DNA of 64,000 bases from an uncultured Alphaproteobacteria bacterium (GCA_902579395.1 CACHGK010000002.1:155767-219766), one strand, 5' to 3'. Positions 1 through 16,349 are shown, counted from the stretch's first letter. Notes: generated from the letters alone by a model not told the origin. Numbers and translations are program-made.

Positions 1-1
1 A

Positions 2-550
2 GTGAATGCTCAACTTTTTCCATGTCCAGCAATTTTTTCTAGCGAGAATCATAAAAAAAGAACTAAATTAAGCAAAATTGCTTTCTCATCTCAATCTTTT
101 ACTGGCTATCAACCTATTGACAAAACAACATATAACTATTGTAGAGAACTTTTAGGTAGGTTATCTAAAAATTATGATATTAGTATTATTGGGCATTATG
201 TCGACGACGTATATGCTTGGAAAGACTTAGGTTTGCCTATCATTTATTCTTACGATTCAAATGATTACTTTGATATTTATAACAATTTTGATTTGACTAT
301 TACTACGAGAGTTCATGGAGCGGGAATCTGTGCATCTTTGGGCATACCTGGGATTGCTATTCATCACTCAGCTAGATCTGGAACAGTTGAGGGTTTTAAA
401 AGTTATCTGGTTAAACCAGATAAGGAAAATTTAGATAATTTAATTCAAAAAATTTCATCAATAAATATCAAAAAATATTCTGAAGAGATTATCAATTTCA
501 AGCTAAAAAGTAAAAAAAGGCTTCAAGATAAATTGATGGAATTACTATAG
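2..550 (+). CDS. Polysaccharide pyruvyl-transferase-like glycan enzyme, C-terminal part (5' end outside window)
   Basis: The ORF is open to the window edge. The segment TTRVHGAGICASLGIPGIAIHH resembles the conserved R-x-H...G-x-P block of pyruvyl-transferase-type enzymes, and the context is a glycan cluster. The family call is from memory only. Confidence 0.35.
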   Translation: MNAQLFPCPAIFSSENHKKRTKLSKIAFSSQSFTGYQPIDKTTYNYCRELLGRLSKNYDISIIGHYVDDVYAWKDLGLPIIYSYDSNDYFDIYNNFDLTITTRVHGAGICASLGIPGIAIHHSARSGTVEGFKSYLVKPDKENLDNLIQKISSINIKKYSEEIINFKLKSKKRLQDKLMELL

Positions 551-649
551 ACTCCATCACTCAAGAAATCTGATATAAGTTTTGATTTCTTAATAATATT
601 AATTAGTACCAAAAAAAAAACTATCTAGTAGAATTTAAAAATTAATCAA

Positions 650-1756
650 ATGAAAAAAATAGTATTTATAAATTTTTTAATTTTTTTTTTAATATTATTA
701 ACAATTGAAACCCTAGTATTTTTATTAAGATATTTTCACGACAAACCAAATATCGGATTTATTAAAACTGGAAGTTTATTTGAAAAAATTGATGATGACT
801 GCCAAAGAATGAAGACACACCCAATTTTGGGACATGTACATGATCATCAGGGAAAGTGTGAAATTTTAGATGGTTCAATTAATAATAATTTTGTACTTTA
901 CGACACAGAAAATAGTAATGCTGAATTTATTATTACATTAGGAGGGTCAACTTCTGACGGTTTTTATAAAAATTTTAGTAATGGTAAAACTTATCCATTC
1001 TTTTTAAGTCAATTATGTAATATTGAAAAATTATGTCGAGTTCTAAATGGCGGGACTGGAGGTTATGGATCATCAAAAGAATTATTAAAGCTATTAACTG
1101 AAGTTTCTAGCTTAAATATTGAGATAAGTCATATTATTTCGTTAAGTGGTATAAATGATATTGAAGGCTACTCTAATCCTAACATAAATGAGTACCTTCA
1201 TGAACCTTATCTTGACAGCAACCAAATGTATATGCTGCAAAATCAAAAGTGGATTATCAAAAATCAAAAACCCTTTATGATCTTTCCAAACATACTTAGT
1301 CTCTTCTATAATTTTGATATTAATCTACCACATTCAAAAAAAAATCAATTTGTCCCTGAATATAATTCCGAATCGCGATTTAAAGATAATGCTGATGTAT
1401 GGTTATTCAATATTAAAACAATGCATGCAATCAGTTTAATTTTAGGAGCAGAATTTTTTGTTTTTCTTCAGCCAACGCTTGGGCTTGAAGGTGCACAGTC
1501 AAAGTTTATTGGTCAGAATGCTCGTGATGAAGAACTTCTTTTAGATTTACTTAAAAATGAAACCTATCTAAATAATCTCAGAAATACCTATTCAAAATTA
1601 AAAAAACATTGTTTGGAAATTACTTACTGTTTTGATATTTCTGATATAGCATTACCCTCCACTAAAAATGTTTACAGTAATAACAGACATCATAATGAAA
1701 GAGGCAATGAAATAATTGCTAACAAAATATTCAAAATCATAAATCAAAGAAATTAG
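650..1756 (+). CDS. Membrane-anchored SGNH/GDSL-like hydrolase or O-acyl-modifying enzyme
   Basis: It has an N-terminal hydrophobic helix. SGNH-like blocks occur in order: GGSTSDG (I), GGTGGYGS (II), SGINDI (III), NNRHHNERGNEIIA (V). Confidence 0.5.
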   Translation: MKKIVFINFLIFFLILLTIETLVFLLRYFHDKPNIGFIKTGSLFEKIDDDCQRMKTHPILGHVHDHQGKCEILDGSINNNFVLYDTENSNAEFIITLGGSTSDGFYKNFSNGKTYPFFLSQLCNIEKLCRVLNGGTGGYGSSKELLKLLTEVSSLNIEISHIISLSGINDIEGYSNPNINEYLHEPYLDSNQMYMLQNQKWIIKNQKPFMIFPNILSLFYNFDINLPHSKKNQFVPEYNSESRFKDNADVWLFNIKTMHAISLILGAEFFVFLQPTLGLEGAQSKFIGQNARDEELLLDLLKNETYLNNLRNTYSKLKKHCLEITYCFDISDIALPSTKNVYSNNRHHNERGNEIIANKIFKIINQRN

Positions 1757-2191
1757 CGAACTATGAAGATAGGCATCCAAGTATTTTGATATTTTCTACC
1801 AAAAGGAAGGAAACATTATACCTGAATGCCCATATATAAAGTTTTCATTAATTTGTTAAAATTTAAATTTATTTGACGAATATTGGGTATTAAGTTTATT
1901 GATGCAGTGTATTTATATGAAAATCATCTGAAATATATCTCTGATTTCTTTAATAATTTCTTTTTCAAAATTTTACATCTTTTATACAAAACTAAATCAA
2001 GAGATTGTATTTTTTCTTTTTTTACATTAAAAAAACTGAATTCTTTTTTGGATTTCAAATTCAGAATTTTAAAATTTTAGTGGAATATTGTTTTAATTTT
2101 AATTTCTGATGCTCAATAAAGACTAAAATATGAAATCCATATAAATTTTATTTGAAAGACTAATCCGAAAAAAAAAAAAAATATTAATTCT

Positions 2192-3523
2192 GTGATATAT
2201 AAAAGAATGCAAAAAAATATTTCTAGTCAAATAATTTTATATTTTTTCTTTGCAAGTTACCTTATTCTGAGTAACAATAAACTATACTCTTCAATCTTTA
2301 TAGATATCGGGCATAATAGCTTTCTGAAATCTGTTTTCTATTTTTTATCCTCTCTAATTTTTTTCTATTTATTCTTCCTATTTTTATCGATAAAAAAAAG
2401 ATATTTAAGATTCTTAATCTGCATTTTATTTTTAATCTCAAGTTTCTTTAGTCAGATATATTCTGATGTCTCAGGAAATATCATTAATATTGATAACATT
2501 GAAATTATGATGATTAATACTGACTCAAATCTTGATTTTTTTTACCAATTTAAAGATCATGTTATAAAAAATTTTTTTATATTTATAGTCGGTCTTGTGG
2601 CAGTTTTAATTGGAAACAGTAAAAAATTTAAAATAAATAAATTTTTAAGTTTTTTTGCAATATTTTTTTTTATTTCAATTCTTATTTTTTCAATTAGTAG
2701 AAAAGGCTACGGAAATCAGGGATTACCATCTCAATTACAATTTCTCGTTCCTTTACCATTAATTTTTTTTTCAAATAATTTTATTTACGAAGATAAAATT
2801 CCAAAGAAAAAAGAGTTAAAAGACAATAACATAGTACTAATAATTGATGAAAGTGTTTCCTTTAAAAAATTGAAAAATCTTGTTAAAAATAATGAAGTAT
2901 TTAAATTTTTAAAAAAATCCTATTCTATTCATAATTGCAGTGCTCAATCAGTTTTTTCATTTATTAACGGACTAAAATTACAGGGAGATCAGCTTATTCT
3001 TCGGAGAAACCTCTGGTTTTTAGCAAAATATAGTGGCTATCAAACAATCTATTTATCAGCTCAAGAAAAGAATGATAGATATCAATATTTACAAATGCCA
3101 TCTGATTTGAAAAATATAGATCAAAAAATGTTTTTTGGAAATATGACACCAGCGATGAGGGATCAAATTATTCTCAAAGAATTAATAGATCTTATTACTA
3201 AAAAATCCAATCAATTTATTGTTGTAATTAAAAATGGGTCCCATTTCCCATACGAGAAAAATCTTGATCAAAAGAAGTATGATTTAAAAAGAAATGAAAG
3301 TCTAGAAACTATTTACAAGCTAAGTCTAAAAGAAAATACAATAAACTTTCTAGAAAAATTAATTTCCTCAAATAATTTAAATACAGAAGTATTATACTTT
3401 TCCGATCATGGACAATCATTCAAATCTAAAAAATTAAGCCATTGTAATAGTTTAAATCCTGATATTGAAGAATGGGAAATACCACTTTTATATTACAAAG
3501 GTAATAAAAATAAAAAAAATTGA
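2192..3523 (+). CDS. Sulfatase-superfamily / phosphoethanolamine-transferase-like membrane protein; the frame ends just after an A8 run
   Basis: Several N-terminal hydrophobic helices are followed by a sulfatase-like domain with IVLIIDESVS and YFSDHGQSF blocks. The start is GTG at 2192, with an alternative ATG at 2207. The stop TGA at 3521-3523 lies directly after A8 (3512-3519). Confidence 0.55.
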   Translation: MIYKRMQKNISSQIILYFFFASYLILSNNKLYSSIFIDIGHNSFLKSVFYFLSSLIFFYLFFLFLSIKKRYLRFLICILFLISSFFSQIYSDVSGNIINIDNIEIMMINTDSNLDFFYQFKDHVIKNFFIFIVGLVAVLIGNSKKFKINKFLSFFAIFFFISILIFSISRKGYGNQGLPSQLQFLVPLPLIFFSNNFIYEDKIPKKKELKDNNIVLIIDESVSFKKLKNLVKNNEVFKFLKKSYSIHNCSAQSVFSFINGLKLQGDQLILRRNLWFLAKYSGYQTIYLSAQEKNDRYQYLQMPSDLKNIDQKMFFGNMTPAMRDQIILKELIDLITKKSNQFIVVIKNGSHFPYEKNLDQKKYDLKRNESLETIYKLSLKENTINFLEKLISSNNLNTEVLYFSDHGQSFKSKKLSHCNSLNPDIEEWEIPLLYYKGNKNKKN

Positions 3524-3677
3524 TATTAATAACAATCTTAAATTTTATGATTTTGTTTTAAGTATGATGGGATTAAAAAATAGTAAGACCACTGATAATA
3601 AAAATATTTTATTTTATGGAAGTATCAACAAACGACTGGATAGTAGCTTAAAATTTAAAGAGGTAGATTTAGATTGA
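3465..3677 (+). pseudogene. Displaced C-terminal fragment of the preceding sulfatase-family gene (+1 frame); meaningful from about 3519
   Basis: From the A8 run onward this frame reads KKIDINNNLKFYDFVLSMMGLKN, which resembles the usual C-terminal sulfatase block (h-x-D-h-h-x-T-h-h-x-h-x-G-h). Its stop TGA (3675-3677) overlaps the TTG start of the next gene (TTGA), a typical coupled junction. Confidence 0.45.
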
Positions 3678-4372
3678 AGCACATTGTTTTCAAAATCTTC
3701 ACATTAATTTTTTTTTCATTTCAGATATTTTTTTATTTATATCCAAAAGTGTCTTATGCAACGGAACTCTGGTTACATAAAGCACAAGAAATGTTTGAAG
3801 AAAATTTAGAAAAAAATCAAATCTCATCAGATTGGGAAGGTTTTGAGATAGATATATTCTATTCAAAAGAAAGTAATAAATTTTTTATAACTCATGATCC
3901 TCCAAGTAATTCAATGCCTTATAGAAATTTAAAAAGCTTAATGAATATAAGAAATCAAAGGATATGGTTTGATATAAAAAACTATAATGATTTAGACTTA
4001 AGAAGTATCAAAATTTTAAAATCAACTCTTAAAACTTTAGCAAAAAATAATGATATTTTTGTAGAAGGTTTTAATCCTATCAAATTAATTTTACTAAACT
4101 CTTCAGAATACAATATTATCTTTAATTTATCATCTATAGCTCACAATAAAATCTTTTTAAAATTTACAAAACTCTTAACAAAATTACTCAAAATAAATAA
4201 TTATAGTATTTCAGCTAATCAATATGAATTGATTAAAGGTTTTTTTCAGGAAGACAGCCTTATGGTATTCACAATAAATAATTCTGAATCTTTATGTAAT
4301 TTTTTAAAGATTTATAAACCGAAAGTTATATTAACAAAAATAAATTCAAGTAAATTAAAATGTATAGAATAA
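3674..4372 (+). CDS. Exported hypothetical protein, weakly GDPD/PI-PLC-like
   Basis: TTG start; signal-like N-terminus. WEGFEIDIFYSKESNKFFITHDPP faintly resembles the G-x-E-x-D...H-D block of glycerophosphodiester phosphodiesterases. The assignment is weak. Confidence 0.35.
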   Translation: MKHIVFKIFTLIFFSFQIFFYLYPKVSYATELWLHKAQEMFEENLEKNQISSDWEGFEIDIFYSKESNKFFITHDPPSNSMPYRNLKSLMNIRNQRIWFDIKNYNDLDLRSIKILKSTLKTLAKNNDIFVEGFNPIKLILLNSSEYNIIFNLSSIAHNKIFLKFTKLLTKLLKINNYSISANQYELIKGFFQEDSLMVFTINNSESLCNFLKIYKPKVILTKINSSKLKCIE

Positions 4373-4415
4373 ATTTTTATATGAAATAATTACTTAAAAA
4401 TTAGAGTAAAAAAAA

Positions 4416-5711
4416 ATGATACGAATCTTTAACAACTACAAATATATTTCTTTTTTTTGGGTTATATTTTCTTTTTATTTTATATTTCTGATGATTGGGC
4501 CTAGAGTTTCAGACGTTAATCAGGAGAATCTTTGTGTAAGAAATTTTAAAATAAATAATTTTCTTGGTCATAGTATGAACTGTGATTCAGCCGATTATAT
4601 GTTAAATGCTTCCAATCCAAAAAGATTATTAGAAGAAGACTCCGTTCGACAGGCACGACCAGGATTAATTGTAAATGCTTTCATATTTTCTTTTTTTATA
4701 GATAATTTTATTAGCTTATTTGGATATCAAAATGATTATCCAAAGATTACTATAATTGAAAATAGTGATAAAAAATATTCGGTTTTCGAAAACTTTAATC
4801 CTAAAATAGTGTATATTTCGTATTTCCTGATTAATTTAAAGTTTTTGCTACTCTCTATTTTTTTTTATTTTAAGCTTTTTAGAAAATCTATTTTTAATCC
4901 CCTTCATTATAAAGATTGGATAATTTGGCTTTCATTACTTCTAGTTATAAACAATGTTGTAAATCAATTCATGTGGTCACCATCAACAAAACTACTGAAT
5001 ATTTTTTGTAGTTTATACACAATTTATTTTTCTCGAGAAATAATACTCAAAGAATTAAGCTCAAAGCAAATCTTACTACTTAATTTAGTTTCAGGAATCT
5101 TAATTTTATATTACGCGGTATTTTTTATAAGTTTTGTTGTTATAAACTTATTTTATGTATTTTCATATAGAAAGCATTTACTTCTTATTATTGCGAGTAG
5201 CATCTGCTTTCTCACACCTTACATGTTATGGTATGGATATGTCGTGAGTTTAAATGGAAAATTCTATTTTTCAAACATTTCAGATTATAATTTTGTGATT
5301 TGGATTATAGATTCATTTAATAACTTTGGATTTTTTAAGACTGCAATTTTAATTCTCGAGGGATATTATTTCTTCTTTTCTTCTTTTTTATCTCAGTATT
5401 TTATATTTATTGCACTTATTTTCTTCATTCTGATTTTTTCAATAAAAAAGAAAATTTTTTATTTTAATAGCCCTGTTATCTTGAGCAGCACAATTTTCAT
5501 TTTTTTTTTTTCTAGCTTCTTTGTAATATTGGGTCATAAACCAATGAATATAACTGCATGTTTAATTGCACCTATTATAATTTTATTTTCAGAAATTCTT
5601 TTAACAAATCGGATTAATATGATTAACGAGAATTTTTTAAAAAAAACTTTTTTTATAATATTCCCTTTTTTTTATTTTTGGTCCTTGATTAAATTTGGTC
5701 CATATTCTTGA
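4416..5711 (+). CDS. Polytopic integral membrane protein (possible glycan polymerase/ligase or GT-C-like enzyme)
   Basis: 431 aa, with at least 10 hydrophobic segments and one larger loop near the N-terminus. It sits in the glycan cluster. No diagnostic motif was recognised. Confidence 0.45.
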   Translation: MIRIFNNYKYISFFWVIFSFYFIFLMIGPRVSDVNQENLCVRNFKINNFLGHSMNCDSADYMLNASNPKRLLEEDSVRQARPGLIVNAFIFSFFIDNFISLFGYQNDYPKITIIENSDKKYSVFENFNPKIVYISYFLINLKFLLLSIFFYFKLFRKSIFNPLHYKDWIIWLSLLLVINNVVNQFMWSPSTKLLNIFCSLYTIYFSREIILKELSSKQILLLNLVSGILILYYAVFFISFVVINLFYVFSYRKHLLLIIASSICFLTPYMLWYGYVVSLNGKFYFSNISDYNFVIWIIDSFNNFGFFKTAILILEGYYFFFSSFLSQYFIFIALIFFILIFSIKKKIFYFNSPVILSSTIFIFFFSSFFVILGHKPMNITACLIAPIIILFSEILLTNRINMINENFLKKTFFIIFPFFYFWSLIKFGPYS

Positions 5712-6756
5712 TTTCATGTTCAGCTATTTTATTAAGGATATCTTCCAGATTATATTTCAAACTCCAACTAGGATAATCATTTTTAAACTTTCTAAAGTCA
5801 CTTATCCACCAAATATGATCACCAACTCTATTTTGATTTTTGTAGTTATATTTTGTTTCGATATTGTAATTAGCTTTGAAAAAATTTATTACCTCAAGAA
5901 TTGAGCAACTATTTTTTCTTCCTCCTCCAATATTATAAATTTTTCCACATTTGGGATTTTTAAAATAACTCCAAAAACAATTCACCAAATCTTTACTGTG
6001 AATGTTATCTCTAACTTGCTTTCCCTTATAACCAAAAATATTATAAGCCTTTTTTCTAACTATAGATTTTACTATGTATGAAAGAAAACCGTGAAGCTCA
6101 ACTCCAGAATGATTTTCTCCAGTTAAACACCCACCTCTAAATGTCACAGTGTTAAGTTTAAAATATTTTCCAAACTCCTGAACATATAAATCTGCACTTA
6201 ACTTTGAAGCTCCAAAAAAAGAATGAGTGCAATTATCAATACTCAAAGACTCGTCAAATCCATGGGAGTAAAATTTATTTTTTGGCGAAATTTCAAATCT
6301 ATATTTTTTTTCAACAAATTCAAATTGATTAGGAATATCTCCATAAACTTTGTTAGTAGATAAATTTATAAAACATGCTTCGGGACAATAGTTTTTATAG
6401 GCATTTAAAAGTTGTACAGTTGAAATTGTATTAACTCTAAAATCTTCAATGATATTAGTTGTCGCCCAATCATGAGAGGGTTGAGCCGCACAATGAACAA
6501 TACATCTAATTTTGCTCCTGTATTTTGATAATAGATCTTCAATTTTTTTTTTATTTAAAATATTCAAAGATAAATGTTCATAGCTTTTGAATTCCAAGAG
6601 TTGATTAATATTTTTACTTACGCTTGCATCATGACCGAAAAACTTTTTTCTACTATCATTGTCTATTCCAATTACTTTAAAACCTTTATTCATAAAAAAA
6701 ATTGAGGTTTCCATCCCAATTAATCCTGCTGAACCTGTGACTAATGCAAATTTCAT
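5689..6756 (-). CDS. NAD-dependent sugar-nucleotide epimerase/dehydratase (extended SDR)
   Basis: N-terminal Rossmann motif LVTGSAGLIGMET; extended-SDR length; a S...Y-x-x-x-K-type segment (GASKLSADLY). Confidence 0.85.
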   Translation of the reverse strand: MKFALVTGSAGLIGMETSIFFMNKGFKVIGIDNDSRKKFFGHDASVSKNINQLLEFKSYEHLSLNILNKKKIEDLLSKYRSKIRCIVHCAAQPSHDWATTNIIEDFRVNTISTVQLLNAYKNYCPEACFINLSTNKVYGDIPNQFEFVEKKYRFEISPKNKFYSHGFDESLSIDNCTHSFFGASKLSADLYVQEFGKYFKLNTVTFRGGCLTGENHSGVELHGFLSYIVKSIVRKKAYNIFGYKGKQVRDNIHSKDLVNCFWSYFKNPKCGKIYNIGGGRKNSCSILEVINFFKANYNIETKYNYKNQNRVGDHIWWISDFRKFKNDYPSWSLKYNLEDILNKIAEHEIKNMDQI

Positions 6757-6821
6757 AATAAACTGATAGAATAAGTTAACTGCTACTTTATAATAACCTT
6801 TGTATTTTTTTTTAAAAGTAT

Positions 6822-8198
6822 ATGAATTATTTTGACTATTATAAAAAAAACTTCAGCAGAAGAATAAAATTTACAAAAAAATATTCATATGTTTACAGAA
6901 TTATTGCTGATGAAATAAATAAATATATGAGCAGTAACTCTCGAATATCTATCTATTGTGCAGGGCATTCAATAATTACAAACTACCTGAAATTTAAAAG
7001 CGCATATGTAGGAGAAATCATTGATGAATTTCTTTGTTTGTTTAAATTAAATAAAAATATTTTTAAGTTAAAGGAAAATAAAAAGGTTGATGAAGTTGTT
7101 GTCTGCGATCTTGAATATGCCTCAAATCCCGTTCAGAAAATGATAGATCTTAATAGACTACTTAATTCTGACGGTAAAGTTTATATTGTTAGTAATAATA
7201 TTTTTTGGAATCCTTTTTTTAAACTCCTAGAAATATTAAATCTAAAATTTAGGCATCCTAGAAAAAATCTGATTAGTTCAAATTTTATTGAAAATCTTTG
7301 TTTTTTAACTGATTTTAGAATTGTAAAAAAAAAAAGATTTTTATTATTTCCATTTAAAATTTTCTTTTTTAGCAGTCTGATGAATAATTTTTTTGCAAAG
7401 ATACCATTTATTAATTATTTTTGTTTGATTCAATTATTTGTTTTAAGATCAAATAATAAAGAAAAACTTTGTTTGGAAAATTTAAAAACCTCAATTATTG
7501 TCCCCTGTAAAAATGAAGAAAAGAATATTAATGCAATTGTTAAGTCAATAAAAAGAATTGGTTCATCAACAGAAATTTTATTCGGCGATGACAATTCCAG
7601 TGATAATACACTATCTGAAATAAAGAAGAATTTAGTTAAAACGAATGATTTAACAATAAAATATTATAAGGGTCCTGGAATATCAAAAGCAGAAAACGTT
7701 TATAAAGGCTTTAACCTAGCAAGTGGCGATATATTAATTATTCATGACGCAGACAATTGTGTTTCTTTTTCTGAATTAGATTTGATGGTAAGAACTTTAA
7801 TTGAAAAAAAATTAGAATTAGTTATTGGCACAAGGTTTATCTATCCAATGGAAGAAAAAGCAATGAGAAGTTTTAATTATTTTGGCAATATAATATTTTC
7901 TTATATTTTTTCTTTTTTATTGCAGCAAAAAATTACTGACACATTGTGCGGCACAAAAATACTTCATAAAAAAGATTGGTTAAAAATAAAAAAACAATGT
8001 GGTAGTTGGGGAATAAAAGACAAATGGGGAGATTTTGATTTACTCCTGGGTGCAAAGGCAAATTTTCTAAAATTAGCAGAAATACCAGTTAATTACAAAA
8101 AGAGAACCGAAGAAGAAAGTAAAATGACAAATGTTTTTTCTAATGGTCTAAGAATGTTAGTTATTTCGGTTATCTCATTTTTTAAATTAAGATTTTAA
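6822..8198 (+). CDS. Family 2 glycosyltransferase with an N-terminal methyltransferase-like extension
   Basis: The C-terminal half has GT2 blocks: SIIVPCKNEEKNI, FGDDNSSDNT, ILIIHDADN. The N-terminal ~210 aa look like a class I methyltransferase fold (LEYASNPVQKMIDLNRLLNSDGKVYIV) but have a degenerate G-x-G-x-G site. Confidence 0.75.
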   Translation: MNYFDYYKKNFSRRIKFTKKYSYVYRIIADEINKYMSSNSRISIYCAGHSIITNYLKFKSAYVGEIIDEFLCLFKLNKNIFKLKENKKVDEVVVCDLEYASNPVQKMIDLNRLLNSDGKVYIVSNNIFWNPFFKLLEILNLKFRHPRKNLISSNFIENLCFLTDFRIVKKKRFLLFPFKIFFFSSLMNNFFAKIPFINYFCLIQLFVLRSNNKEKLCLENLKTSIIVPCKNEEKNINAIVKSIKRIGSSTEILFGDDNSSDNTLSEIKKNLVKTNDLTIKYYKGPGISKAENVYKGFNLASGDILIIHDADNCVSFSELDLMVRTLIEKKLELVIGTRFIYPMEEKAMRSFNYFGNIIFSYIFSFLLQQKITDTLCGTKILHKKDWLKIKKQCGSWGIKDKWGDFDLLLGAKANFLKLAEIPVNYKKRTEEESKMTNVFSNGLRMLVISVISFFKLRF

Positions 8199-8203
8199 AA
8201 GTA

Positions 8204-8917
8204 ATGTTTAGTTATTTTTTTGAAAAAATTATTTTGTATTTAGATAATAAATCTCAAAATAACAATCTAAATTTTATAAAAAAAGTTTACGGTAGAAATC
8301 TGAACATAATCTTTGATATTGGTTGTCACGAAGGTGAGACGATAGATTTAATAAAAAAAAAATTTTGTTATAAGAAGATTTATGCATTTGATCCAAATAA
8401 AGATTTAGTAAATAAATTAATGACCAAGCATTGTGATGTTGATTTCATTAATAAAGCAGTAGGTGAAAAAAGATGTAAAAAAACTTATTTTAAATCTCAA
8501 TTTTCTGCAATAAATACTTTAAATAAAATAAATCAATCATCAGATTACTATCGAAAAAAAAGTAGAATAATCTCTCTTATTTATCCAAAAAAAAGCAAAA
8601 ATGTTAACAATCTAGTAGATGTAATTAGTTTAAAAGAATTTATGGGAGGGAAAAAAATAAAGTCTGTTGATTTAGTCAAAATTGATACTGAAGGTTATGA
8701 ATTTTTTGTTTTAAAAGGAATTGGAAACTATTTAAAGAATATAAAAATGATATTATTTGAACACCATTATGATAATTCATTATTAAAGAATTATAAATTT
8801 TCGGATATAAATTTTTTATTAGATAAAAATGGTTTTTATTTAGCTTATAAAAGTAAAATGATGATGAGAAATATCTTTGAATATATTTATCTAAATAGCA
8901 ATTATTTTAAAAAATAA
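8204..8917 (+). CDS. FkbM-family methyltransferase
   Basis: IIFDIGCHEGET (SAM motif I) and VKIDTEGYEFFVLKG are typical FkbM-family blocks. Confidence 0.75.
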   Translation: MFSYFFEKIILYLDNKSQNNNLNFIKKVYGRNLNIIFDIGCHEGETIDLIKKKFCYKKIYAFDPNKDLVNKLMTKHCDVDFINKAVGEKRCKKTYFKSQFSAINTLNKINQSSDYYRKKSRIISLIYPKKSKNVNNLVDVISLKEFMGGKKIKSVDLVKIDTEGYEFFVLKGIGNYLKNIKMILFEHHYDNSLLKNYKFSDINFLLDKNGFYLAYKSKMMMRNIFEYIYLNSNYFKK

Positions 8918-8979: not shown

Positions 8980-9057
8980 GGTGGCTGTAGCTCAGTTGGT
9001 TAGAGCGCTGGTTTGTGGTACCGGAGGCCGGGGGTTCAAATCCCCTCAGCCACCCCA
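8980..9057 (+). tRNA. tRNA-His (anticodon GTG) with G-1 and encoded CCA
   Basis: Manual cloverleaf: G-1; acceptor GTGGCTG/CAGCCAC; D arm GCTC-AGTTGGTTA-GAGC; anticodon arm CTGGT-TTGTGGT-ACCGG; variable AGGCC; T arm GGGGG-TTCAAAT-CCCCT; discriminator C; CCA. Confidence 0.95.
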
Positions 9058-9086
9058 TTTAGTTTAGTTGTATCTTCATATATTAA

Positions 9087-10937
9087 CTACTCGGAAGTTA
9101 AAAATTGTCTAAAATCTTTATAAATGTCAGTAATTTCACCTGCCAAACCATATAGACCTTCAGTATTTTTATGACCTTTTTTTAGGTGATGAACAAAAGG
9201 GTTACAAATTAAAAATCTATGAGCATGTGTTGAGTTGTAACCTTTACTATCAAAATAAACATTATAATCCCTTGAACCTGTAACCCTCTCTTCTTTATTT
9301 AAAAAATATTGAATTGATAATTTTTCAATTTTTGTTAATTCGCAAAAAAGCTTATTTTGAGATATAACTTCATTATCTTTGATTACAAAAATTTTATAGT
9401 TTTTTAGTATTGTTGTCAGAGATTCTTTATCAAAAGAGATGTATTTTTGTAAAAGTCCACCATACCCATAATTATTTAATGAATTAACAAGAGAAATAAT
9501 TTTTACTTTTCGGAAAACTGAAAATATTTTTCTTAGAACAATATTGATATTTTTTATAAAATATTTTCTTTTGACATATATTAGGTCAGTTAAATCCAAT
9601 TGTTTATAACCAATTAATTGAATGGTTTTTTTTGAAAGATTTACAACATGATCTTTATTATTTTTATACCAACTTTCTGTTAAAATTTTTTCATTGTTAA
9701 TAAATTTATATAGACTAAAAATCCTTTTGTTATAAGTAAGTTTCTTTAACGATGAAAAAAAAAAGTTATAATACCTAAAATCAATAGAGGGGTGTTTTTC
9801 AAAAAGAATCTCAATGTTACCAAAAGAGTATAATAAAAAAAAGTTTTTCTCTTTTTGTTCATCAAATGCTATAGCAAAATCCAATAAAAAAAAAAAGAAA
9901 TTTTTTGGATAGATTTTTTTTGTAAAATTATTTGTAACCAACCAATTTGGAATTTCATTAGTTTTAATTGGAGTTTCTTTTAGAAGTTTGTTAAGCATTC
10001 TAAGTATATTTACAAAATTAAAATATTTTAAATTAATTTTAATTTTTTCTAATAATCTATCTTCGTACTGCCTCACCCTTTCTCTTGATAGTTCTTTAGT
10101 AAAATTGTATTGGTCTGGCTTTTTCCCAATTGAATCTAAAGTTCTTAGAGGATATTTATCATTGGGCATATACCTAGAAAAAAATATCTTGCTTTCAGTC
10201 TCAGATAATTTACTCGTTTTAATAAGATGTAAAATATCATCTTCAATATATTTAGAATCTATTGAAACTTTAGGATAAATTTTATTAAAATTTTGATTGT
10301 GATAATCTTCAAGTTCTTGTCTTGAGGGAATATTTCTTATTTTACTCCCAAATGATAATTCATAACCTGATAAAATAATTGAAAGTTTTGTAATTGTTTC
10401 AAACCCAACTTTAGGTATGCGATTTAAGTTTTCATAATCAAGTTGGATTAGATCCAATAAAAAGATGATTTCATTCGATTCTGAAATTCTTTTTATTTTT
10501 GCATCAAGAGTTATTTCAGATATTTTTTTTAATAGTATGTTTTTTTTTTTTTCTTCAATTTCTAAAAAAGTTTTATTAATGACGAACTTTTCGTCACAAA
10601 AAAGCTTTCCCAGATATGCTGAATTTTGTAATCTACCAATTTTTATATTTTCATCTTTAACTTTAATATTATTAATTCTTCTGTAAATGCCTATCATTGT
10701 CCCAAGTTCATAGATTTTAATGTTAAGAATTGATGAAACAATTGATTTATTCTTTCTTTTCTCTAAGAATAACTTATAAATTTCTCCTAATTCTTTTTCT
10801 AATATATTTTTATATTCTAATGCTAGATTTGAATTCCGATCTTTATTTTTGAGATATAAATTGGCATAGGTAGTAATATGTTTCAAAGGTATTTTCATAT
10901 AGAAACTTAAGTATATAAAAAATAAAAGAATTGACAA
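9087..10937 (-). CDS. Large hypothetical protein with a sigma-70 region-4-type helix-turn-helix
   Basis: The central segment LSETESKIFFSRYMPNDKYPLRTLDSIG...LSRERVRQYEDRLLEKIK matches the sigma70_r4 pattern (L-x-x-R-E-R...S-R-E-R-V-R-Q-x-E). A possible HhH-like NLNRIPKVGFETITKL lies upstream of it. The likelier start is MKIPLKH at 10898. The stop is 29 nt from the tRNA. Confidence 0.65.
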   Translation of the reverse strand: MSILLFFIYLSFYMKIPLKHITTYANLYLKNKDRNSNLALEYKNILEKELGEIYKLFLEKRKNKSIVSSILNIKIYELGTMIGIYRRINNIKVKDENIKIGRLQNSAYLGKLFCDEKFVINKTFLEIEEKKKNILLKKISEITLDAKIKRISESNEIIFLLDLIQLDYENLNRIPKVGFETITKLSIILSGYELSFGSKIRNIPSRQELEDYHNQNFNKIYPKVSIDSKYIEDDILHLIKTSKLSETESKIFFSRYMPNDKYPLRTLDSIGKKPDQYNFTKELSRERVRQYEDRLLEKIKINLKYFNFVNILRMLNKLLKETPIKTNEIPNWLVTNNFTKKIYPKNFFFFLLDFAIAFDEQKEKNFFLLYSFGNIEILFEKHPSIDFRYYNFFFSSLKKLTYNKRIFSLYKFINNEKILTESWYKNNKDHVVNLSKKTIQLIGYKQLDLTDLIYVKRKYFIKNINIVLRKIFSVFRKVKIISLVNSLNNYGYGGLLQKYISFDKESLTTILKNYKIFVIKDNEVISQNKLFCELTKIEKLSIQYFLNKEERVTGSRDYNVYFDSKGYNSTHAHRFLICNPFVHHLKKGHKNTEGLYGLAGEITDIYKDFRQFLTSE

Positions 10938-11117
10938 AGAAAATAAAACAATATAAATTTAAAATGGGTGATTAATAGCTACAACTATTAAACCTAGGAA
11001 ATTGAAGTTTTGATTAGTCTAATGGATTAATCATACTTAAAGAAGCAATTAATTTGGTTCTTTTGCGAAGTTGCCAGTCTCCTTATTGATTATTAATATT
11101 TAACAAAGGAGATAAAA

Positions 11118-13139
11118 ATGTCTTTTGATAATCAGATAAATTTAGTAAATAAAATTAAAAAGTCAGGTGAGTTAAAATTTTTTGGTACTCAATCTGCGTT
11201 TAAAAGTATGCAAAGCAATGCTTCGTATGATAATGAGGCTATGGCTATTAATGACTTAATTGACAACAGCTTAGATGCTCATGCATCTGAAGTTAACATA
11301 CTTCTAGTAACAGGAGCCGAAAGAACTCCTGATGATTACTCTATGCATGATTCTGGAAGAAAACGTGCTGATAGAGTTTCTGCAATTCTTGTTCAAGATA
11401 ATGGAACAGGTATGGCAGATGGCTTTACCCGTGCTGCAGTTGCTTACGGTTGGTCATCCAAAAAAGATAAAAAAACATTAGGTACATTTGGTTTTGGAAT
11501 TAAAAACGCCGGTATTGCATTTGGATCTAGGTTAGAAGTGTATTCTAAAAATAAAAATGGAAAATGGGAATTCTGTTACATTGATGTGAATGAATTTACT
11601 GATGAGAAACTAAGAGAATTAAAAGGTGAACCACCTCAAGCCATTGAGAAAAGTCCATCTGAGAAGTACCCTTTTTACAGTGAATATTTTGATAATTTAA
11701 AAACAGGAACAATAATTTCTCTGGAAAATCTTGATCCAGCAAAAATTAAATGGTCTACAACATCGAGTTTTAAAAAAAATGCTCTACAAGAAATAGCTAC
11801 AACATTTTATAAAAAAGCTGGAGATATTAGTTTGAATTTTGATGATGGAACTGGTCCTGAAAAAGTTGATTTTATAGATCCACTGTTTCAAACACCTACC
11901 TTAAGATATTTTAAGTGTAAACATCCTCAAACTGGAAGAGTAGATAATGAAAAGGTAAAAATATATAATTCTGTTACTTACCCAGTAATTGATAAGGTAA
12001 CAAAACAGTTGAGAGGTAACGTTGTCGCAAGATTTAGTCTTATGTCACCCACCTTTAATCATTATACTAAAGATCCTTCCTCTTCAAAAGAAAACCTAGC
12101 TAAGTTTAATAAAAATGATGATTATAATCCTCGTAATAAGGTTATGGCAGATCATAAAGGTATAGTAATTTGTAGAAATGGTAGAAAAATATTTATGCAA
12201 AACCATTTACCGGATATAGATATAGGAAATAATTATAGACAAGTAGGAATGGAACTAGACTTTGATGGTTCACTTGATGAGATTTTGGGATTAACCACTC
12301 AAAAAGATAAAGTTCGCTTTGGCAAAGAATTTTTTAATTTTTTGAGAGAAAAAGGTTTTATTGAAACAATAAGAGCTATTTATTCTGAAAGACAAAAACT
12401 TTTCTCAGAACACAGAGAAAAACTGGAAAAAATTAAATCCTCCAAAGACCCTAAAAAATCCTACGATCATACTCAAGTGGCAGCTATGAAAGCTGTTGAA
12501 GATGCAAGAAAAAAACCATCTGATGAAACTTTAAAACGTTTGAAAGAGATTGGAAAAGAAAATCTTGATTCTCAAGCTGAAAATATAGCTAGAGAAGCGG
12601 GTAAAGATAAATCAGATGTTCTAAAAGAGCTAAATAAAGAAACCAACGATGTTCCTTTTAATGTAAGAGAAAAACATCTCTCTAGAAGTGCAGACTTTAT
12701 TAACTTTGTAAGAGAGGGTGCAACGACTTGGCTTGAGTTTAATAAGGATCATATTTATTGGGAAAAGTTAGAGGGAAATCCTACTATTTCAGGTGATGCC
12801 AGGCAATATATGCATTTTGTTTTCTACGCCTTTTACCAGGCTTTAATTACCAGAGAAACAATTAATAAAGGAGAAGTAGATAAATTTATTCTGGATTCAA
12901 ATTTCTTTTTTAATTTAATGAAAGACTGGAGTGAACATATGCATTCATTATTTGAAAGTTTAAGTCAGGTTAAACAATCTGTTGACAATGATTCTTCAAT
13001 CACTCTTGAAGAAATTACTCAGCAGCGAATAAAAGATGAAATGTATAAAAAAAAACTACTTAAATCTAAACAAAAAGATAATCAAGATAAGAGTTCAAAA
13101 ACTGTTGAAGATTATTTAGAGGATGGTTTATTAAATTAA
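11118..13139 (+). CDS. MORC-like GHKL (Bergerat-fold) ATPase, HATPase_c_3-type
   Basis: Strong SD (AAAGGAGATAAAAATG). Ordered ATP-binding motifs are INDLIDNSLDAHA (N box), VQDNGTGM (G1) and GTFGFGIKNAG (G2). The long charged C-terminal half is probably coiled-coil. Confidence 0.8.
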   Translation: MSFDNQINLVNKIKKSGELKFFGTQSAFKSMQSNASYDNEAMAINDLIDNSLDAHASEVNILLVTGAERTPDDYSMHDSGRKRADRVSAILVQDNGTGMADGFTRAAVAYGWSSKKDKKTLGTFGFGIKNAGIAFGSRLEVYSKNKNGKWEFCYIDVNEFTDEKLRELKGEPPQAIEKSPSEKYPFYSEYFDNLKTGTIISLENLDPAKIKWSTTSSFKKNALQEIATTFYKKAGDISLNFDDGTGPEKVDFIDPLFQTPTLRYFKCKHPQTGRVDNEKVKIYNSVTYPVIDKVTKQLRGNVVARFSLMSPTFNHYTKDPSSSKENLAKFNKNDDYNPRNKVMADHKGIVICRNGRKIFMQNHLPDIDIGNNYRQVGMELDFDGSLDEILGLTTQKDKVRFGKEFFNFLREKGFIETIRAIYSERQKLFSEHREKLEKIKSSKDPKKSYDHTQVAAMKAVEDARKKPSDETLKRLKEIGKENLDSQAENIAREAGKDKSDVLKELNKETNDVPFNVREKHLSRSADFINFVREGATTWLEFNKDHIYWEKLEGNPTISGDARQYMHFVFYAFYQALITRETINKGEVDKFILDSNFFFNLMKDWSEHMHSLFESLSQVKQSVDNDSSITLEEITQQRIKDEMYKKKLLKSKQKDNQDKSSKTVEDYLEDGLLN

Positions 13140-13158
13140 ATCTTTATAAATCAATTTT

Positions 13159-13186
13159 TACTCACGGTAAAAAATTACCGTGAGTA
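13159..13186 (+). promoter_or_regulatory. Perfect 12-bp stem / 4-nt loop hairpin between cassette genes 2 and 3, covering the GTG start of gene 3
   Basis: TACTCACGGTAA-AAAA-TTACCGTGAGTA. The GTG at 13180-13182 lies in the 3' arm. An in-frame TAA at 13168-13170 prevents an earlier start. Confidence 0.5.
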
Positions 13187-15102
13187 TTAATATTAAAAAA
13201 GTTAAATCAAAAATTTTAGGAAACGAATTTGATTACGCTCATAACATTGCTTATGACTACATAGGTTATGAGGGAGAAGAGTATGTTCATAAAGATTTAA
13301 AAATTTTTAAAGATTCTTACAATTCAATTTTACAAAGATATAAAAAATTAACTGAATATGAAAAAATATATTTAAAAACTTTATTTCAATTATTTGTGAA
13401 TTACCTTGAAATGAATTGGGTTATAAAACTATCAAAAAATAAATCTTTTGAATGCTTCCCCAAAAAAAGGTTAACAAAAAAATCAATTCAAATTAACCTT
13501 AGAAAATCAAAACAACGTAATATAAGAAAATACACCAACTTAATTTCAACTGTTCAAAGTCCAAAAAGTAAACCAAATAAAACAATTTTTGAAATTATTT
13601 CATCAGGAGAAGAATTATACAAAAATTTTCAGAAATTAAAAAAACTACCTGAAAATGAAAGAGTTTTAAATCTAAGTAAGTTGATTCAACCCAAAGTTTT
13701 TTTAGCTGATCAGTCAATTGATAAAATTACTGGAAATAAACTTTCAGATATTTGGACTTATCTACGCTTGTACTGGACAATACCATTTGAATCAACACCT
13801 GGAAGAACAATGCCTTTCATCATAAGAAATATGGCATTCGAAAATATGCCAATTATAGGAATTGGAATGTTAGCAAGTCCAGTATTAAGGTTGACTGTAA
13901 GAGATAGTTGGATAGGTTGGAATTTGGAGGCATTACATAAAAAACTTTTTGAAGAGAAATACAATCCATCAGAGATTATTGATTTGTTTTATTCAGTTCT
14001 ATTTAAGCATATAGATAATACATATTATGAGGATCTGCCATTAAATGAGAAAATTATAAATAAACCAACAATTGAAAATATTGTTGCAGTTGAGAAAATA
14101 GTTAAAATCAGTGAAAAGGAAAGACAATTTGATATTATAAACAAAAATTCTATTTACAAGGAAAAGCCTGACTTGTTAAATATGAGTAATGATGAAATTC
14201 TTGCATGGACAAAAAGACCTTTATATAAAAAAAAAAGATCAAGTAAACTTTCTAAAATTTTAGAGATTTTAAGAATATTTGAACAATTTAAATTAAAAGA
14301 AAATCCAAAAAACTTATTTATAATGTTAAAAGTTGATTTTGGAAAATCAGCTATTTCATATGTTTTAGATTTAATCAGGGTTGATGGATTGTCTAGCGAA
14401 GTTGCTGATTTGTCTATTTGTGGTGCAATACCTCCGTATAATGAAATTTTATGTGGAAAATTAACATGTCTGATAAGTGGTTCACAAGAAATTCAAGAAA
14501 TGTATAAAAAGAGATATGAGAATACAATATCAGAAATTTCAACCTTTACAGCTGGAAAGGCAATATTTAGGGATGTAAATTTAAAAGTTTTAACAACAAC
14601 AAGTTTGTATGGAAGATCTAGTCAATACAATAGGATTAAAATTTTGAAAAATAAAGAGAATAGCCTTAAAAATGATTTAATTTGGAATCATCTTGGATCC
14701 ACTAGAGGTTACGGTGTATTTCACTTTGATGAAAAAACAACAGAATTATTGCAAACAGTTTATGAAATTAAAAATGGTTACAGAAATGTAAATAGTGTTT
14801 TTGGTGAAGGCACAAGTCCAAAACTTAGAAAAATTAGAGATGGTTTGTCAATTTTCAAAATTGACGGCGATACTGGAATAAAGCATGGTCAAGTCAGAGA
14901 TTCTTATGCAACTGAGTTGTTTGATTTTGCTAGAGAAGAGTTAATATTTAAAACGCTCCGTAATTCTAGAAATTCAAAGGATTCTATTAAAAATATTACA
15001 GATTGTTGGATTAAAAGATGGTTGGTAAGAAGAATTGAAAATGAAGAAGTAATGCAAAGATTAAAATATTCAGGAAAATCTAAAATTATTGAGAATATTT
15101 AG
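13180..15102 (+). CDS. DUF4338 (DruA-like) domain protein, enlarged
   Basis: PGRTMPFIIRN...GMLASPVLRLTVRDSWIGWN, then ADLSICGAIPPYNEILCGKL...VLTTTSLYGRSSQYNRI...WNHLGSTRGYG. These match my memory of the DUF4338 blocks (G-x-x-L-R-Y...R-D-x-W-I-G-W...N-N-S-R-F-L-I-L-P...E-T-F-V-D...G-x-T-x-G). Confidence 0.65.
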   Translation: MSINIKKVKSKILGNEFDYAHNIAYDYIGYEGEEYVHKDLKIFKDSYNSILQRYKKLTEYEKIYLKTLFQLFVNYLEMNWVIKLSKNKSFECFPKKRLTKKSIQINLRKSKQRNIRKYTNLISTVQSPKSKPNKTIFEIISSGEELYKNFQKLKKLPENERVLNLSKLIQPKVFLADQSIDKITGNKLSDIWTYLRLYWTIPFESTPGRTMPFIIRNMAFENMPIIGIGMLASPVLRLTVRDSWIGWNLEALHKKLFEEKYNPSEIIDLFYSVLFKHIDNTYYEDLPLNEKIINKPTIENIVAVEKIVKISEKERQFDIINKNSIYKEKPDLLNMSNDEILAWTKRPLYKKKRSSKLSKILEILRIFEQFKLKENPKNLFIMLKVDFGKSAISYVLDLIRVDGLSSEVADLSICGAIPPYNEILCGKLTCLISGSQEIQEMYKKRYENTISEISTFTAGKAIFRDVNLKVLTTTSLYGRSSQYNRIKILKNKENSLKNDLIWNHLGSTRGYGVFHFDEKTTELLQTVYEIKNGYRNVNSVFGEGTSPKLRKIRDGLSIFKIDGDTGIKHGQVRDSYATELFDFAREELIFKTLRNSRNSKDSIKNITDCWIKRWLVRRIENEEVMQRLKYSGKSKIIENI

Positions 15103-15646: not shown

Positions 15647-15693
15647 TTTGTGGTACCGGATGTCGGGGGTTCAAATCCCCTCAGCCACCCCAT
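15647..15693 (+). repeat. Direct repeat of the tRNA-His 3' half (att-like), 45/47 identical
   Basis: Aligns to 9012-9058. The only differences are in the variable loop (AGGCC becomes ATGTC). The upstream sequence cannot form the 5' half of a tRNA. Confidence 0.85.
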
Positions 15694-15694
15694 T

Positions 15695-16201
15695 TTATTT
15701 TGTTGAGATTGTATAAAATGTTTCGGTATTTCCAGCGGAGTAGCCTGTTTCAGGGTTAAATTCTGTTTGTCCTTTACCATAACCAATTACTCCTTTGTAG
15801 ACCCCAGTCCCTCCCGTTATTGTAATTGTAGTATTAACAAGACCATTTTTACTAACGTCCTCTGGAGTTTGAGCAACACCATCAACTCGAGAGAAGATTT
15901 TACTACCATCGTCGTAAATCCCAATTGAATAACCTGTTACTTTTCCATTCTTATTAATGTAGTCGCTAATACCATAAAAATCTGTCTTGATTATCTTTAG
16001 ACCCTCACAATTTTTTTTTGATTTTTTATGATTGGTTTCTGTTTTGAAAATTCTTATTACATGACCTTCGATGTCATCAACTTTTATAGATTTCTGAATA
16101 GTGTATTTAACTTCATCATTTGAAGTTGAATTTTTAAATTTGCATGATGCATTAAGATTAAAACAAAACAACAGAATGATAAAAAGAAGTATAGAATTCA
16201 T
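15695..16201 (-). CDS. Small secreted hypothetical protein (beta-rich, possibly dirigent/AOC-barrel-like)
   Basis: Signal-like N-terminus MNSILLFIILLFCFNLNA. ITGGTGVYKG recalls the G-G-T-G-x-F/Y-x-G block of dirigent/allene-oxide-cyclase-like barrels (weak). It is the sole ORF of the second att-bounded segment. Confidence 0.5.
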   Translation of the reverse strand: MNSILLFIILLFCFNLNASCKFKNSTSNDEVKYTIQKSIKVDDIEGHVIRIFKTETNHKKSKKNCEGLKIIKTDFYGISDYINKNGKVTGYSIGIYDDGSKIFSRVDGVAQTPEDVSKNGLVNTTITITGGTGVYKGVIGYGKGQTEFNPETGYSAGNTETFYTISTK

Positions 16202-16284
16202 TCAACTATTATTACTGTACAAAAACATTTTACAAGAAGTTTGTATATATTATTATAGAATTAATAAGTTCAAATTTTAATTGT

Positions 16285-16330
16285 TTTGTGCTATTGGATG
16301 TCATGGGTTCAAATCCCCTCAGCGGCATTA
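16285..16330 (+). repeat. Degenerate direct repeat of the tRNA-His 3' half (att-like relic)
   Basis: Manual alignment to 9012-9057 gives about 12 mismatches in 46 nt. The T-arm core GGGTTCAAATCCCCTCAGC is intact. It shares the ATGTC variable-loop variant with the 15647 copy. Confidence 0.7.
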
Positions 16331-16349
16331 TTTGTTTTAAAGTTGATTT

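Follow-up and report, generated by a model that had tools for sequence, protein, structure and literature searches.

What is the function of three genes that fill an islet at a tRNA-His gene, and do the three belong together? The islet is located in a 64,000-nucleotide (nt) stretch of DNA from an uncultured Alphaproteobacteria bacterium (GCA_902579395.1, CACHGK010000002.1:155767-219766), which is referred to here as the window. The original prediction regarded the three genes as one cassette and as a candidate undescribed defence or conflict system. The open reading frames (ORFs) are present as claimed, a gene for a 616-amino acid (aa) protein at 9087-10937 on the minus strand, a gene for a 673-aa GHKL ATPase at 11118-13139 on the plus strand, and a gene for a 640-aa DruA (DUF4338) protein at 13180-15102 on the plus strand, and every peptide motif quoted in the prediction occurs in the translations. 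The second and third genes are co-oriented and are separated by a spacer of 40 nt. The analysis determined that these two genes form a conserved unit. This two-gene core of a MORC-like GHKL ATPase and a long DruA is probably a conflict module (anti-phage or anti-plasmid) that is related to type I Druantia and viable without DruE.

Conservation of the GHKL-DruA pair

Homologous loci were obtained with a DruA-alignment scan of one genome per GTDB species. The scan gave 482 confirmed stretches, of which the best 80 were taken as loci (cited by L numbers), and GHKL family members near DruA were found with a hidden Markov model of the GHKL family. A full-length family GHKL is located directly upstream of DruA, in the same orientation, in 73 of the 80 DruA loci of named genomes. 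The spacers between the two genes range from -97 to +100 nt with one exception of 359 nt at L063, and in some pairs there is an overlap of 4 nt. The GHKL and DruA proteins have correlated pairwise identities (mirror-tree r = 0.924, Mantel 0/999, n = 68 complete pairs). By the adjacency in 73/80 loci and the co-evolution (r = 0.92) the GHKL and the long DruA are one unit, and this part of the predicted three-gene unit stands. A survey for the syntenic trio recovered the GHKL and DruA genes together across genomes, but no homologue of the 616-aa protein was found beside the pair in any of the 84 other loci. The GHKL-DruA pair does not have the 616-aa gene as a conserved partner.

The hosts of the pair are mostly Alphaproteobacteria, including five Pelagibacteraceae single-cell genomes, and the pair is also found in Bryobacterales and in one Enterobacteriaceae metagenome-assembled genome (MAG). 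Loci from Dehalococcoidia, Myxococcota, Gemmatimonadales, and Planctomycetia feature a DruA that has no complete family GHKL upstream. DruA is present on 15 plasmid records, some of them archaeal, and had no match in phage records. A tRNA gene no more than 6 kb away or an integrase in the locus was found for 18 of 32 complete stand-alone pairs, and at least six tRNA types (Phe, Gly, Thr, Met, Lys, and His) are located beside such pairs. The window and the Pelagibacteraceae loci share no synteny, which points to independent acquisitions. The pair is inherited, exchanged, and diversified jointly, and it is carried on tRNA-linked islands and plasmids.

The MORC-like GHKL ATPase

The GHKL gene (11118-13139) is preceded by a strong ribosome binding site, AAAGGAGATAAAAATG. 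Its product was assigned from its motifs, the family profile, and a match to Pfam HATPase_c_3 with an E-value of 1.2e-17 (64.7 bits, cutoff 25). A profile search of the PDB with 22 family GHKLs matched MORC2 (3.2e-12), MORC4 (4.5e-9), and MORC3 (5.9e-6) ahead of MutL (2.4e-5) and Topo VI-B (3e-3), in alignments that cover only the N-terminal ~95 residues of the ATPase. On these profile scores the family appears to be nearer to MORC2, MORC4, and MORC3 than to MutL among solved structures, which agrees with the MORC-like assignment made in advance. The ATP-binding motifs are intact and invariant in the 22 family members and consist of Asp49 and Asn50 in the N-box, Asp94, Gly96, and Gly98 in G1, and Gly122, Gly125, and Gly127 in G2. 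Lys396, which is located in a T-x-K motif, is also invariant in these members and is the putative lysine of the transducer domain. The C-terminal part of the protein is helical and charged.

The window GHKL is homologous to DruA-linked GHKLs over its full length (31% identity over 608 aa with an E-value of 4e-83, and 25% over 623 aa with an E-value of 1e-55), which indicates a dedicated GHKL family rather than a generic domain that is merely shared. The GHKLs of stand-alone pairs are ~600 aa long and those linked to DruE are ~500-530 aa long. The closest named relative of the window, L001 from an Alphaproteobacteria MAG, has a GHKL with an extra N-terminal domain of ~215 aa (L001:7542-8200) that has no Pfam match. 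The L001 island also holds an integrase, AlpA, PrimPol, an RNase T-like exonuclease, and an ARPP-1 gene.

The long-form DruA

The gene at 13180-15102 was predicted to encode a DruA, and the searches bear this out. The protein matches Pfam PF14236 with an E-value of 5.4e-31 (108.3 bits, cutoff 27) and the PADLOC DruA1 model PDLC00001 with an E-value of 5.9e-123, where residues 55-631 of the protein align with positions 52-651 of 675 in the model. By these matches the product is classed as a genuine full-length DruA. All 60 of the 60 family-invariant residues are kept, including the CG..PY.....GKL, TTTS, and FGEG.S motifs, and these invariant columns argue for an active enzyme. Canonical DruA aligns with the core of the window DruA in two separate blocks (residues 189-250 and 409-621), so the long form has in addition an insertion of ~160 aa, helical in the model, that splits the core, and an N-terminal extension. 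A DruA homologue search gave 528 matches, none above 35% identity among the matches listed, and a direct comparison with the partial DruA on L003 gave 40% identity over 493 aa.

The AlphaFold2 (AF2) model of DruA has a pLDDT score (predicted local distance difference test) of 82.7 and a predicted template modelling score of 0.81. Acetyltransferases make up about half of the top 50 Foldseek matches, none of which is significant, and these include HAT1, HBO1, MOF, Esa1, AAC(6'), GNA1, GmvT, and p300. DUF4338 was assigned to the GNAT fold (PMC10853773). The acetyltransferase-rich list obtained with the model is consistent with this published assignment, on which the GNAT assignment of the window DruA core rests. 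No description of the mechanism or function of DruA was found in the literature searched.

The GHKL-DruA spacer features a perfect 12-bp hairpin, TACTCACGGTAA-AAAA-TTACCGTGAGTA, which was found by folding (13159-13186, plus strand), and the GTG start codon of DruA is located inside its 3' arm. The folding of the spacer compared with shuffled sequences gave z = -5.45, and 18 of 68 orthologous spacers had z < -2. The hairpin may be a brake on DruA translation or an attenuator.

Relation to Druantia

Type I Druantia (DruABCDE) is the system of which DruA is the marker, and it was reportedly presented as an anti-phage defence by Doron et al. 2018. The signature DUF4338/DruA protein is common to type I Druantia and the window pair. 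The canonical system on a P. putida plasmid consists of a short DruA of 409 aa followed by DruB, DruC, DruD, and DruE without a GHKL, and this DruA lacks the ~160-aa insertion and the N-terminal extension of the long form. The original prediction stated that no other Druantia component is present, and this is correct for the whole 64-kb window; DruA is found, and no DruB-, DruC-, DruD-, or DruE-like gene was detected by phmmer with P. putida DruB, DruC, and DruD and the L024 DruD, by the queries for DruE, a YprA-type helicase carrying a DUF1998/MZB domain, or by PADLOC. The same DruE queries readily detect DruE in 28 other loci. Homologues of canonical DruB, DruC, and DruD were not found in any of the 85 loci. 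Canonical DruB and DruC were considered as hidden GHKLs and rejected, as they are unrelated to GHKL, and Druantia type IV of PADLOC was rejected as a match, as it is composed of DruE, DruF, and DruL. Recent preprints on the mechanism of Druantia deal with DruH-DruE.

The genes around the pair were classified within ±10 kb of the 84 loci. DruD/DruE genes are present in 30 loci, only the genes for a 974-aa protein and an SNF2 helicase in 9, and none of these in 45, which is the stand-alone class that includes the window and all its nearest relatives. In some loci PADLOC identifies DruE1 (E = 0) and DruD1 (5e-178) beside the pair, either convergent with it or in the same orientation, and other loci feature a NERD-UvrD helicase or the 974-aa protein and SNF2 helicase. 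The DruD1- and DruE1-type genes that adjoin 30/84 pair loci link the pair to type I Druantia. In this respect the cassette is not independent of Druantia. The pair is related to Druantia yet separable from it.

The adjoining DruD/DruE genes in 30/84 loci, the loss of the integrase from the islet, and the name DruA given to the protein by both PADLOC and NCBI could be read to mean that the pair is a decayed and non-functional remnant of a type I-like Druantia that has lost DruD and DruE. This explanation is quite improbable. Both ORFs are intact in a genome with a guanine plus cytosine (GC) content of 26%, where random ORFs are short, and all family-invariant residues are retained. The 45 stand-alone loci out of 84 include whole divergent clades in which the GHKL and DruA still co-evolve, that is the window with L001 and L003, eight tRNA-Phe-type loci, and four Pelagibacteraceae genomes. 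The greater length of the stand-alone GHKLs (~600 aa vs ~500-530 aa) points to a distinct lineage over random decay.

DruA is also found in a third neighbourhood, which consists of DruA, a ~519-aa gene, a ~500-aa gene, and an FtsK-like translocase of ~1500 aa (~1510-1535 aa). It was observed in L032, L061, L064, L083, and L134 (NZ_CP098517.1 93569-103398), with hosts in Myxococcota, Gemmatimonadales, and Methylobacterium and on a haloarchaeal plasmid, and DruA is sometimes fused to the next gene to give a protein of ~1210-1265 aa. A fusion of DUF4338 to DndF has been reported (PMC10853773). On the basis of the GHKL pairing, the FtsK-like neighbourhood, and the DndF fusion, DruA behaves like a plug-in module for a variety of NTPase motors.

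The 616-aa protein and its relatives

The 616-aa gene (9087-10937) is divergent from the pair and is separated from the GHKL gene by an intergenic region of 180 nt at 10938-11117. This region is presumed to be the promoter region of both transcription units; promoter-like matches in it are not commoner than in shuffled sequence. The gene probably starts at the ATG of residue 14 (~10898), since this codon is where a metagenomic fragment with 97% identity sets in. From Pfam, NCBIfam, and its relatives the protein appears to feature a helix-hairpin-helix module at ~129-212 that resembles the C-terminal domain of the RNA polymerase (RNAP) alpha subunit (alpha-CTD), a sigma70 region-4.2-type helix-turn-helix (HTH) at ~243-300 (LSRERVRQYE), and a C-terminal region of ~300 aa. 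The original prediction gave the sigma region-4 HTH as the only recognisable module. The HTH is supported by a partial NCBIfam match to RpoD_Cterm (3.1e-5, far below cutoff) and by remote relatives with significant region-4 and alpha-CTD matches, but the alpha-CTD-like module, which accounts for a second partial NCBIfam match to the RpoA C-terminal domain, had been missed. The match to Pfam Sigma70_r4 has an E-value of 0.036 and 14 bits, below the cutoff of 24.1. Sigma region 2, which a true sigma factor requires for core binding and -10 recognition, was not found in Pfam or NCBIfam, and the alpha-CTD-like module is present instead; judged by this domain content the protein is not a sigma factor.

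A word-index search for homologues of the 616-aa protein gave nothing. An exhaustive HMMER search gave 94-97% identical fragments from the same population, an N-terminal fragment with 44% identity, and remote relatives of 560-914 aa (E-values from 7e-14 to 4e-4) that have residues ~123-350 in common with it. These relatives feature one to four RNA_pol_A_CTD domains and Sigma70_r4, and the profile of the family matches RpoA alpha-CTD (1.7e-23) and primary-sigma region 4 (3e-12) in the PDB. A scan of metagenomes with the family alignment was uninformative, as the generic sigma70 region-4.2 motif was the only usable pattern and led to dnaG-rpoD operons.

In all 4 of the 4 fully resolved contexts the relatives are the last gene of a conserved five-gene operon (L126-L132, e.g. 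L126:2899-9938; L125). The order of the operon is a ~600-aa protein with an N-terminus that matches PADLOC PDC-M33A, a ~300-aa protein, DUF6339, a C5 DNA methylase, and the alpha-CTD/sigma4 protein. Vsr often follows, and the operon is located within defence islands or next to an integrase. In a fifth context, which is truncated (P0129), the methylase, the alpha-CTD/sigma4 gene, and Vsr are all that is seen. This operon looks like an uncharacterised modification-linked system, and none of its partner genes was found in the window. The ~600-aa protein was considered as a GHKL on the basis of QNSxDE, NGLGG, and GSYGxGK motifs seen by eye and rejected, with no Pfam match and an hhalign probability of 0.25% (E 0.24). 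The cytosine-methylase system of PMC9523054 was also rejected as a counterpart of the five-gene operon, as the core genes differ.

Sigma-like partners of other pairs

A Pfam scan of the 136 nearest neighbours of 27 stand-alone pairs determined that Sigma70_r4_2 (7 proteins) and Sigma70_r4 (6 proteins) are the top families, followed by Phage_integrase, HATPase_c_3 from a second GHKL paralogue, and Prim-Pol. Local clustering revealed two groups of proteins whose genes lie directly upstream of the GHKL and share its orientation, a sigma4-only protein of ~102-173 aa in 14 loci and a ~216-aa protein with a C-terminal sigma4-type HTH in 19 loci. The two groups are joined by jackhmmer through a C-terminal HTH module of ~80 residues and account for 36 of the 84 loci in total. 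One member of this partner family is labelled by PGAP as a 'sigma-70 family RNA polymerase sigma factor'. The sigma-region-4 component of the predicted cassette is thus right in kind, with a different sigma70 region-4 family in front of the GHKL in 36/84 loci and a precedent in Mza, but the gene in the window is not homologous to this family. No link between the 616-aa protein and the small sigma4 partner family was found by jackhmmer (5 rounds) or hhalign, for which the positive control gave an E-value of 8e-5. The sigma-like companion of the pair is variable.

The Pelagibacteraceae loci have a conserved upstream ORF of their own, for which no link to the sigma4 partner family was found. The small genes that flank the pair in L001-L003 were considered as a conserved third gene and rejected, since they are not homologous to one another or to the 616-aa protein, and the upstream ORFs of the tRNA-Phe group (L007, L010, and L012) look like spurious antisense ORFs. 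Many loci feature a four-gene form that consists of a second GHKL paralogue (~650 aa), the ~216-aa sigma4-type HTH protein, the GHKL, and DruA (L013, L016, L021, L022, L027, L028, L030, L041, L049, L054, L057, L062, L069, L074, L079, L081, and L133:956-7182). The GHKLs of this form are labelled just 'ATP-binding protein' in annotated records.

The validated mzaABCDE system features MzaA, 'a sigma factor', together with the MORC-like ATPase MzaB (PMC9523054). This combination indicates that a sigma-like protein together with a MORC-like GHKL is a recurring theme. The window GHKL matches only the N-terminal ~100 residues of MzaB, and only weakly (2e-5 with PADLOC and 6e-7 with NCBIfam, 28 bits vs a cutoff of 850). 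Among the relatives of the 616-aa protein there are weak matches to the HTH region of MzaA, with a best E-value of 1.5e-7. Apart from the partial MzaB match no Mza component was matched.

These observations bear on the literal form of the prediction, in which the trio is one system. The 616-aa protein would then be a full third subunit that stands in, without being orthologous, for the small sigma4 partner of other loci, and its role would be to regulate the divergent operon or to sense phage factors directed at RNAP. The att-bounded islet contains just these three genes, and they are arranged divergently about a shared 180-nt control region. Among the 136 neighbours of stand-alone pairs sigma70 region 4 is the commonest domain (7 and 6 proteins), and the partner family is present in 36/84 loci. 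Mza combines a sigma factor with a MORC-like ATPase, and the weak matches of the 616-aa relatives to the MzaA HTH (1.5e-7) and of the GHKL to MzaB are in the same direction. Sigma region-4 proteins are rare in genomes, and chance adjacency is for that reason unlikely. Against this, homologues of the 616-aa protein were found beside none of the other pairs, the protein is not connected to the partner family by jackhmmer or hhalign (positive control at 8e-5), and its divergent orientation and its size are unlike those of that family. Its relatives belong to a conserved five-gene methylase operon that has neither GHKL nor DruA. A three-part system that includes the 616-aa protein is thus a tentative possibility and somewhat doubtful.

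Proposed function of the pair

The reading favoured here is that of a two-gene conflict module, and the defence function that is probably served by the pair is predicted from family relationships and genomic context. Prokaryotic MORC and paraMORC GHKL ATPases are said to belong to restriction-like conflict systems (Iyer, Abhiman and Aravind 2008). The window cassette has in common with these systems the Bergerat-fold, HATPase_c_3-type ATPase and the linkage to conflict-system genes. They are described with SF2 helicases or nucleases, whereas the fixed partner in the window cassette is DruA. A classic paraMORC-type arrangement was observed in L004:635-7787, a tandem duplication of a pair of an SF2 helicase and an HATPase_c_3 protein, which was found through the weak GHKL match P0123.

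In the proposed mechanism the GHKL would dimerise upon ATP binding, as MORC and MutL do, and would serve as a nucleic-acid clamp or sensor. The GHKL may control DruA or DruA may control the GHKL. The DUF4338 core of DruA would be a GNAT-type acyltransferase that modifies some target, and the helical insertion that is specific to the long form is a likely interface with the GHKL. The sigma70 region-4 HTH protein that is a frequent third component (36/84 loci) may be a regulator of the operon or a sensor. In the window this position is held by the non-homologous 616-aa alpha-CTD and sigma4 protein, which may serve the same purpose or may be a separate cargo gene. GNAT toxins of the TacT, AtaT, and GmvT type could resemble DruA in effector chemistry, provided that DUF4338 is an active GNAT (PMC10853773). 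GmvT is found among the non-significant Foldseek matches of DruA, a likeness that has no statistical support. DruA is unlike these toxins in that it is four times larger, its core is split by a large insertion, and it has no small antitoxin gene.

Several points weigh against the conflict module. Defence-island enrichment, which had been expected of the cassette, was not clearly seen; a crude PADLOC scan, which covered the 136 genes closest to 27 stand-alone pairs, produced no more than isolated single matches (DRT-associated SbcB, mad3, mad6, PD-T4-6, MkoA, and PDC-S09), and since it has no baseline, enrichment is neither demonstrated nor ruled out by it. Part of the mirror-tree correlation could be accounted for by shared species phylogeny, and for loci other than the window, where 64 kb were checked, the pairs classed as stand-alone could have partners beyond ±10 kb. 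The DruA model with its pLDDT of 82.7 has no significant structure match in the PDB (best Foldseek E-value of 0.9 for the whole model), and a sequence search of the PDB with DruA gave no match. The AF2 model of the GHKL, made with a 5-sequence alignment, has a pLDDT of 41 and no usable fold, so its S5 transducer domain and C-terminal fold are proposed from motifs only. The presumed general base before the N-box (residues 45-47, 11250-11258) is Asp in the window, L001, and L003, and it is Glu in the other 19 of the 22 aligned family members.

The absence of a clear enrichment of defence genes in the neighbour scan would also fit a module for the regulation or maintenance of mobile elements rather than immunity, where a sigma-like factor, a GHKL that acts on it (cf. 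the anti-sigma kinases SpoIIAB and RsbW), and an acetyltransferase tune the expression or stability of an island or plasmid. The pair is often linked to sigma70-family proteins and is found on islands and plasmids beside integrase, AlpA, and PrimPol genes. The ATPase, however, is of the MORC/MutL type and not of the small anti-sigma kinase type, and about one third of the pairs are joined to DruD/DruE, which are parts of type I Druantia. DruA also pairs with other defence-type motors (the DndF fusion, PMC10853773, and the FtsK-like module), and the patchy, multi-phylum distribution of the pair is typical of defence genes. A role in regulation or maintenance is considered unlikely.

A bolder extension of the conflict module, and a long shot, would have free-standing modules of the RNAP surface act as decoys that capture phage take-over factors and thereby switch on the MORC-like clamp, which licenses the DruA acyltransferase. 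The small partners and MzaA would contribute sigma region 4 as such a module, and the 616-aa protein and its relatives from the methylase operon would contribute alpha-CTD with sigma region 4. The cassette would then be a stand-alone, three-part immune system that detects the hijack of transcription.

The pairing of the GHKL with DruA is a clue to what DruA does. DruA is the marker of type I Druantia, and its long form is nearly always joined to a MORC-like ATPase instead of DruB-E. The pair, which often occurs without DruE and recruits sigma-like proteins, gives DruA a defined, minimal, and testable partner, and the cassette is a compact bacterial model for the coupling of a MORC-type ATPase to an effector. 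Many genomes with 'Druantia DruA' annotated beside an unnamed 'ATP-binding protein' probably carry a distinct system, one that would not count as complete under PADLOC-type rules. Defence systems are considered scarce in streamlined marine bacteria, and both Pelagibacteraceae single-cell genomes and the very AT-rich genome of the window hold the pair. As the prediction had it, the literature searched gave no named system with this make-up; a name for the GHKL-DruA cassette was not found there either, in a search that left most subscription journals outside and is not proof of novelty. The DUF4338 papers in this literature do not mention the GHKL link, and none of its papers contains both 'Druantia' and 'GHKL'.

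The islet and its surroundings

The claim that the genes are the att-bounded cargo of a tRNA-His island is confirmed. The tRNA-His (GTG) gene at 8981-9057 on the plus strand, found by ARAGORN and by Rfam tRNA with 67.6 bits, is the integration target, and its 3' half is the left att copy. A direct-repeat search determined that attL (9012-9070) is a 59-nt direct repeat, the reference copy of family D1, which consists of the 3' part of tRNA-His and 13 nt more. The right end of the islet is marked by attR (15647-15705), the second copy with 92% identity, and because the tRNA-His 3' repeat recurs there, the three genes fill one att-bounded segment. The window is very AT-rich, with ~26% GC in the region of the three genes, and the GC content of the islet is like that of its flanks. 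No integrase or integrase remnant was found in the 64-kb window by tblastn with 17 integrases (E <= 0.05), and the islet is now immobile, without an integrase.

The same search found a third att copy, degenerate (69%), at 16285-16343, which bounds a second mini-islet and suggests tandem insertions at tRNA-His. This mini-islet (15706-16284) holds only one ORF of 168 aa (15695-16201, minus strand), which has no Pfam match and features a hydrophobic N-terminus. Upstream of tRNA-His, positions 1-8917 of the window contain a surface-polysaccharide cluster that consists of a NAD-dependent epimerase, a GT2 glycosyltransferase, an FkbM methyltransferase, and a polytopic membrane protein, which places the islet at the edge of an apparently variable cell-envelope region. 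The other flank of the islet features a hydrolase and a cluster of transglutaminase, Alpha-E, and circularly permuted ATP-grasp genes.

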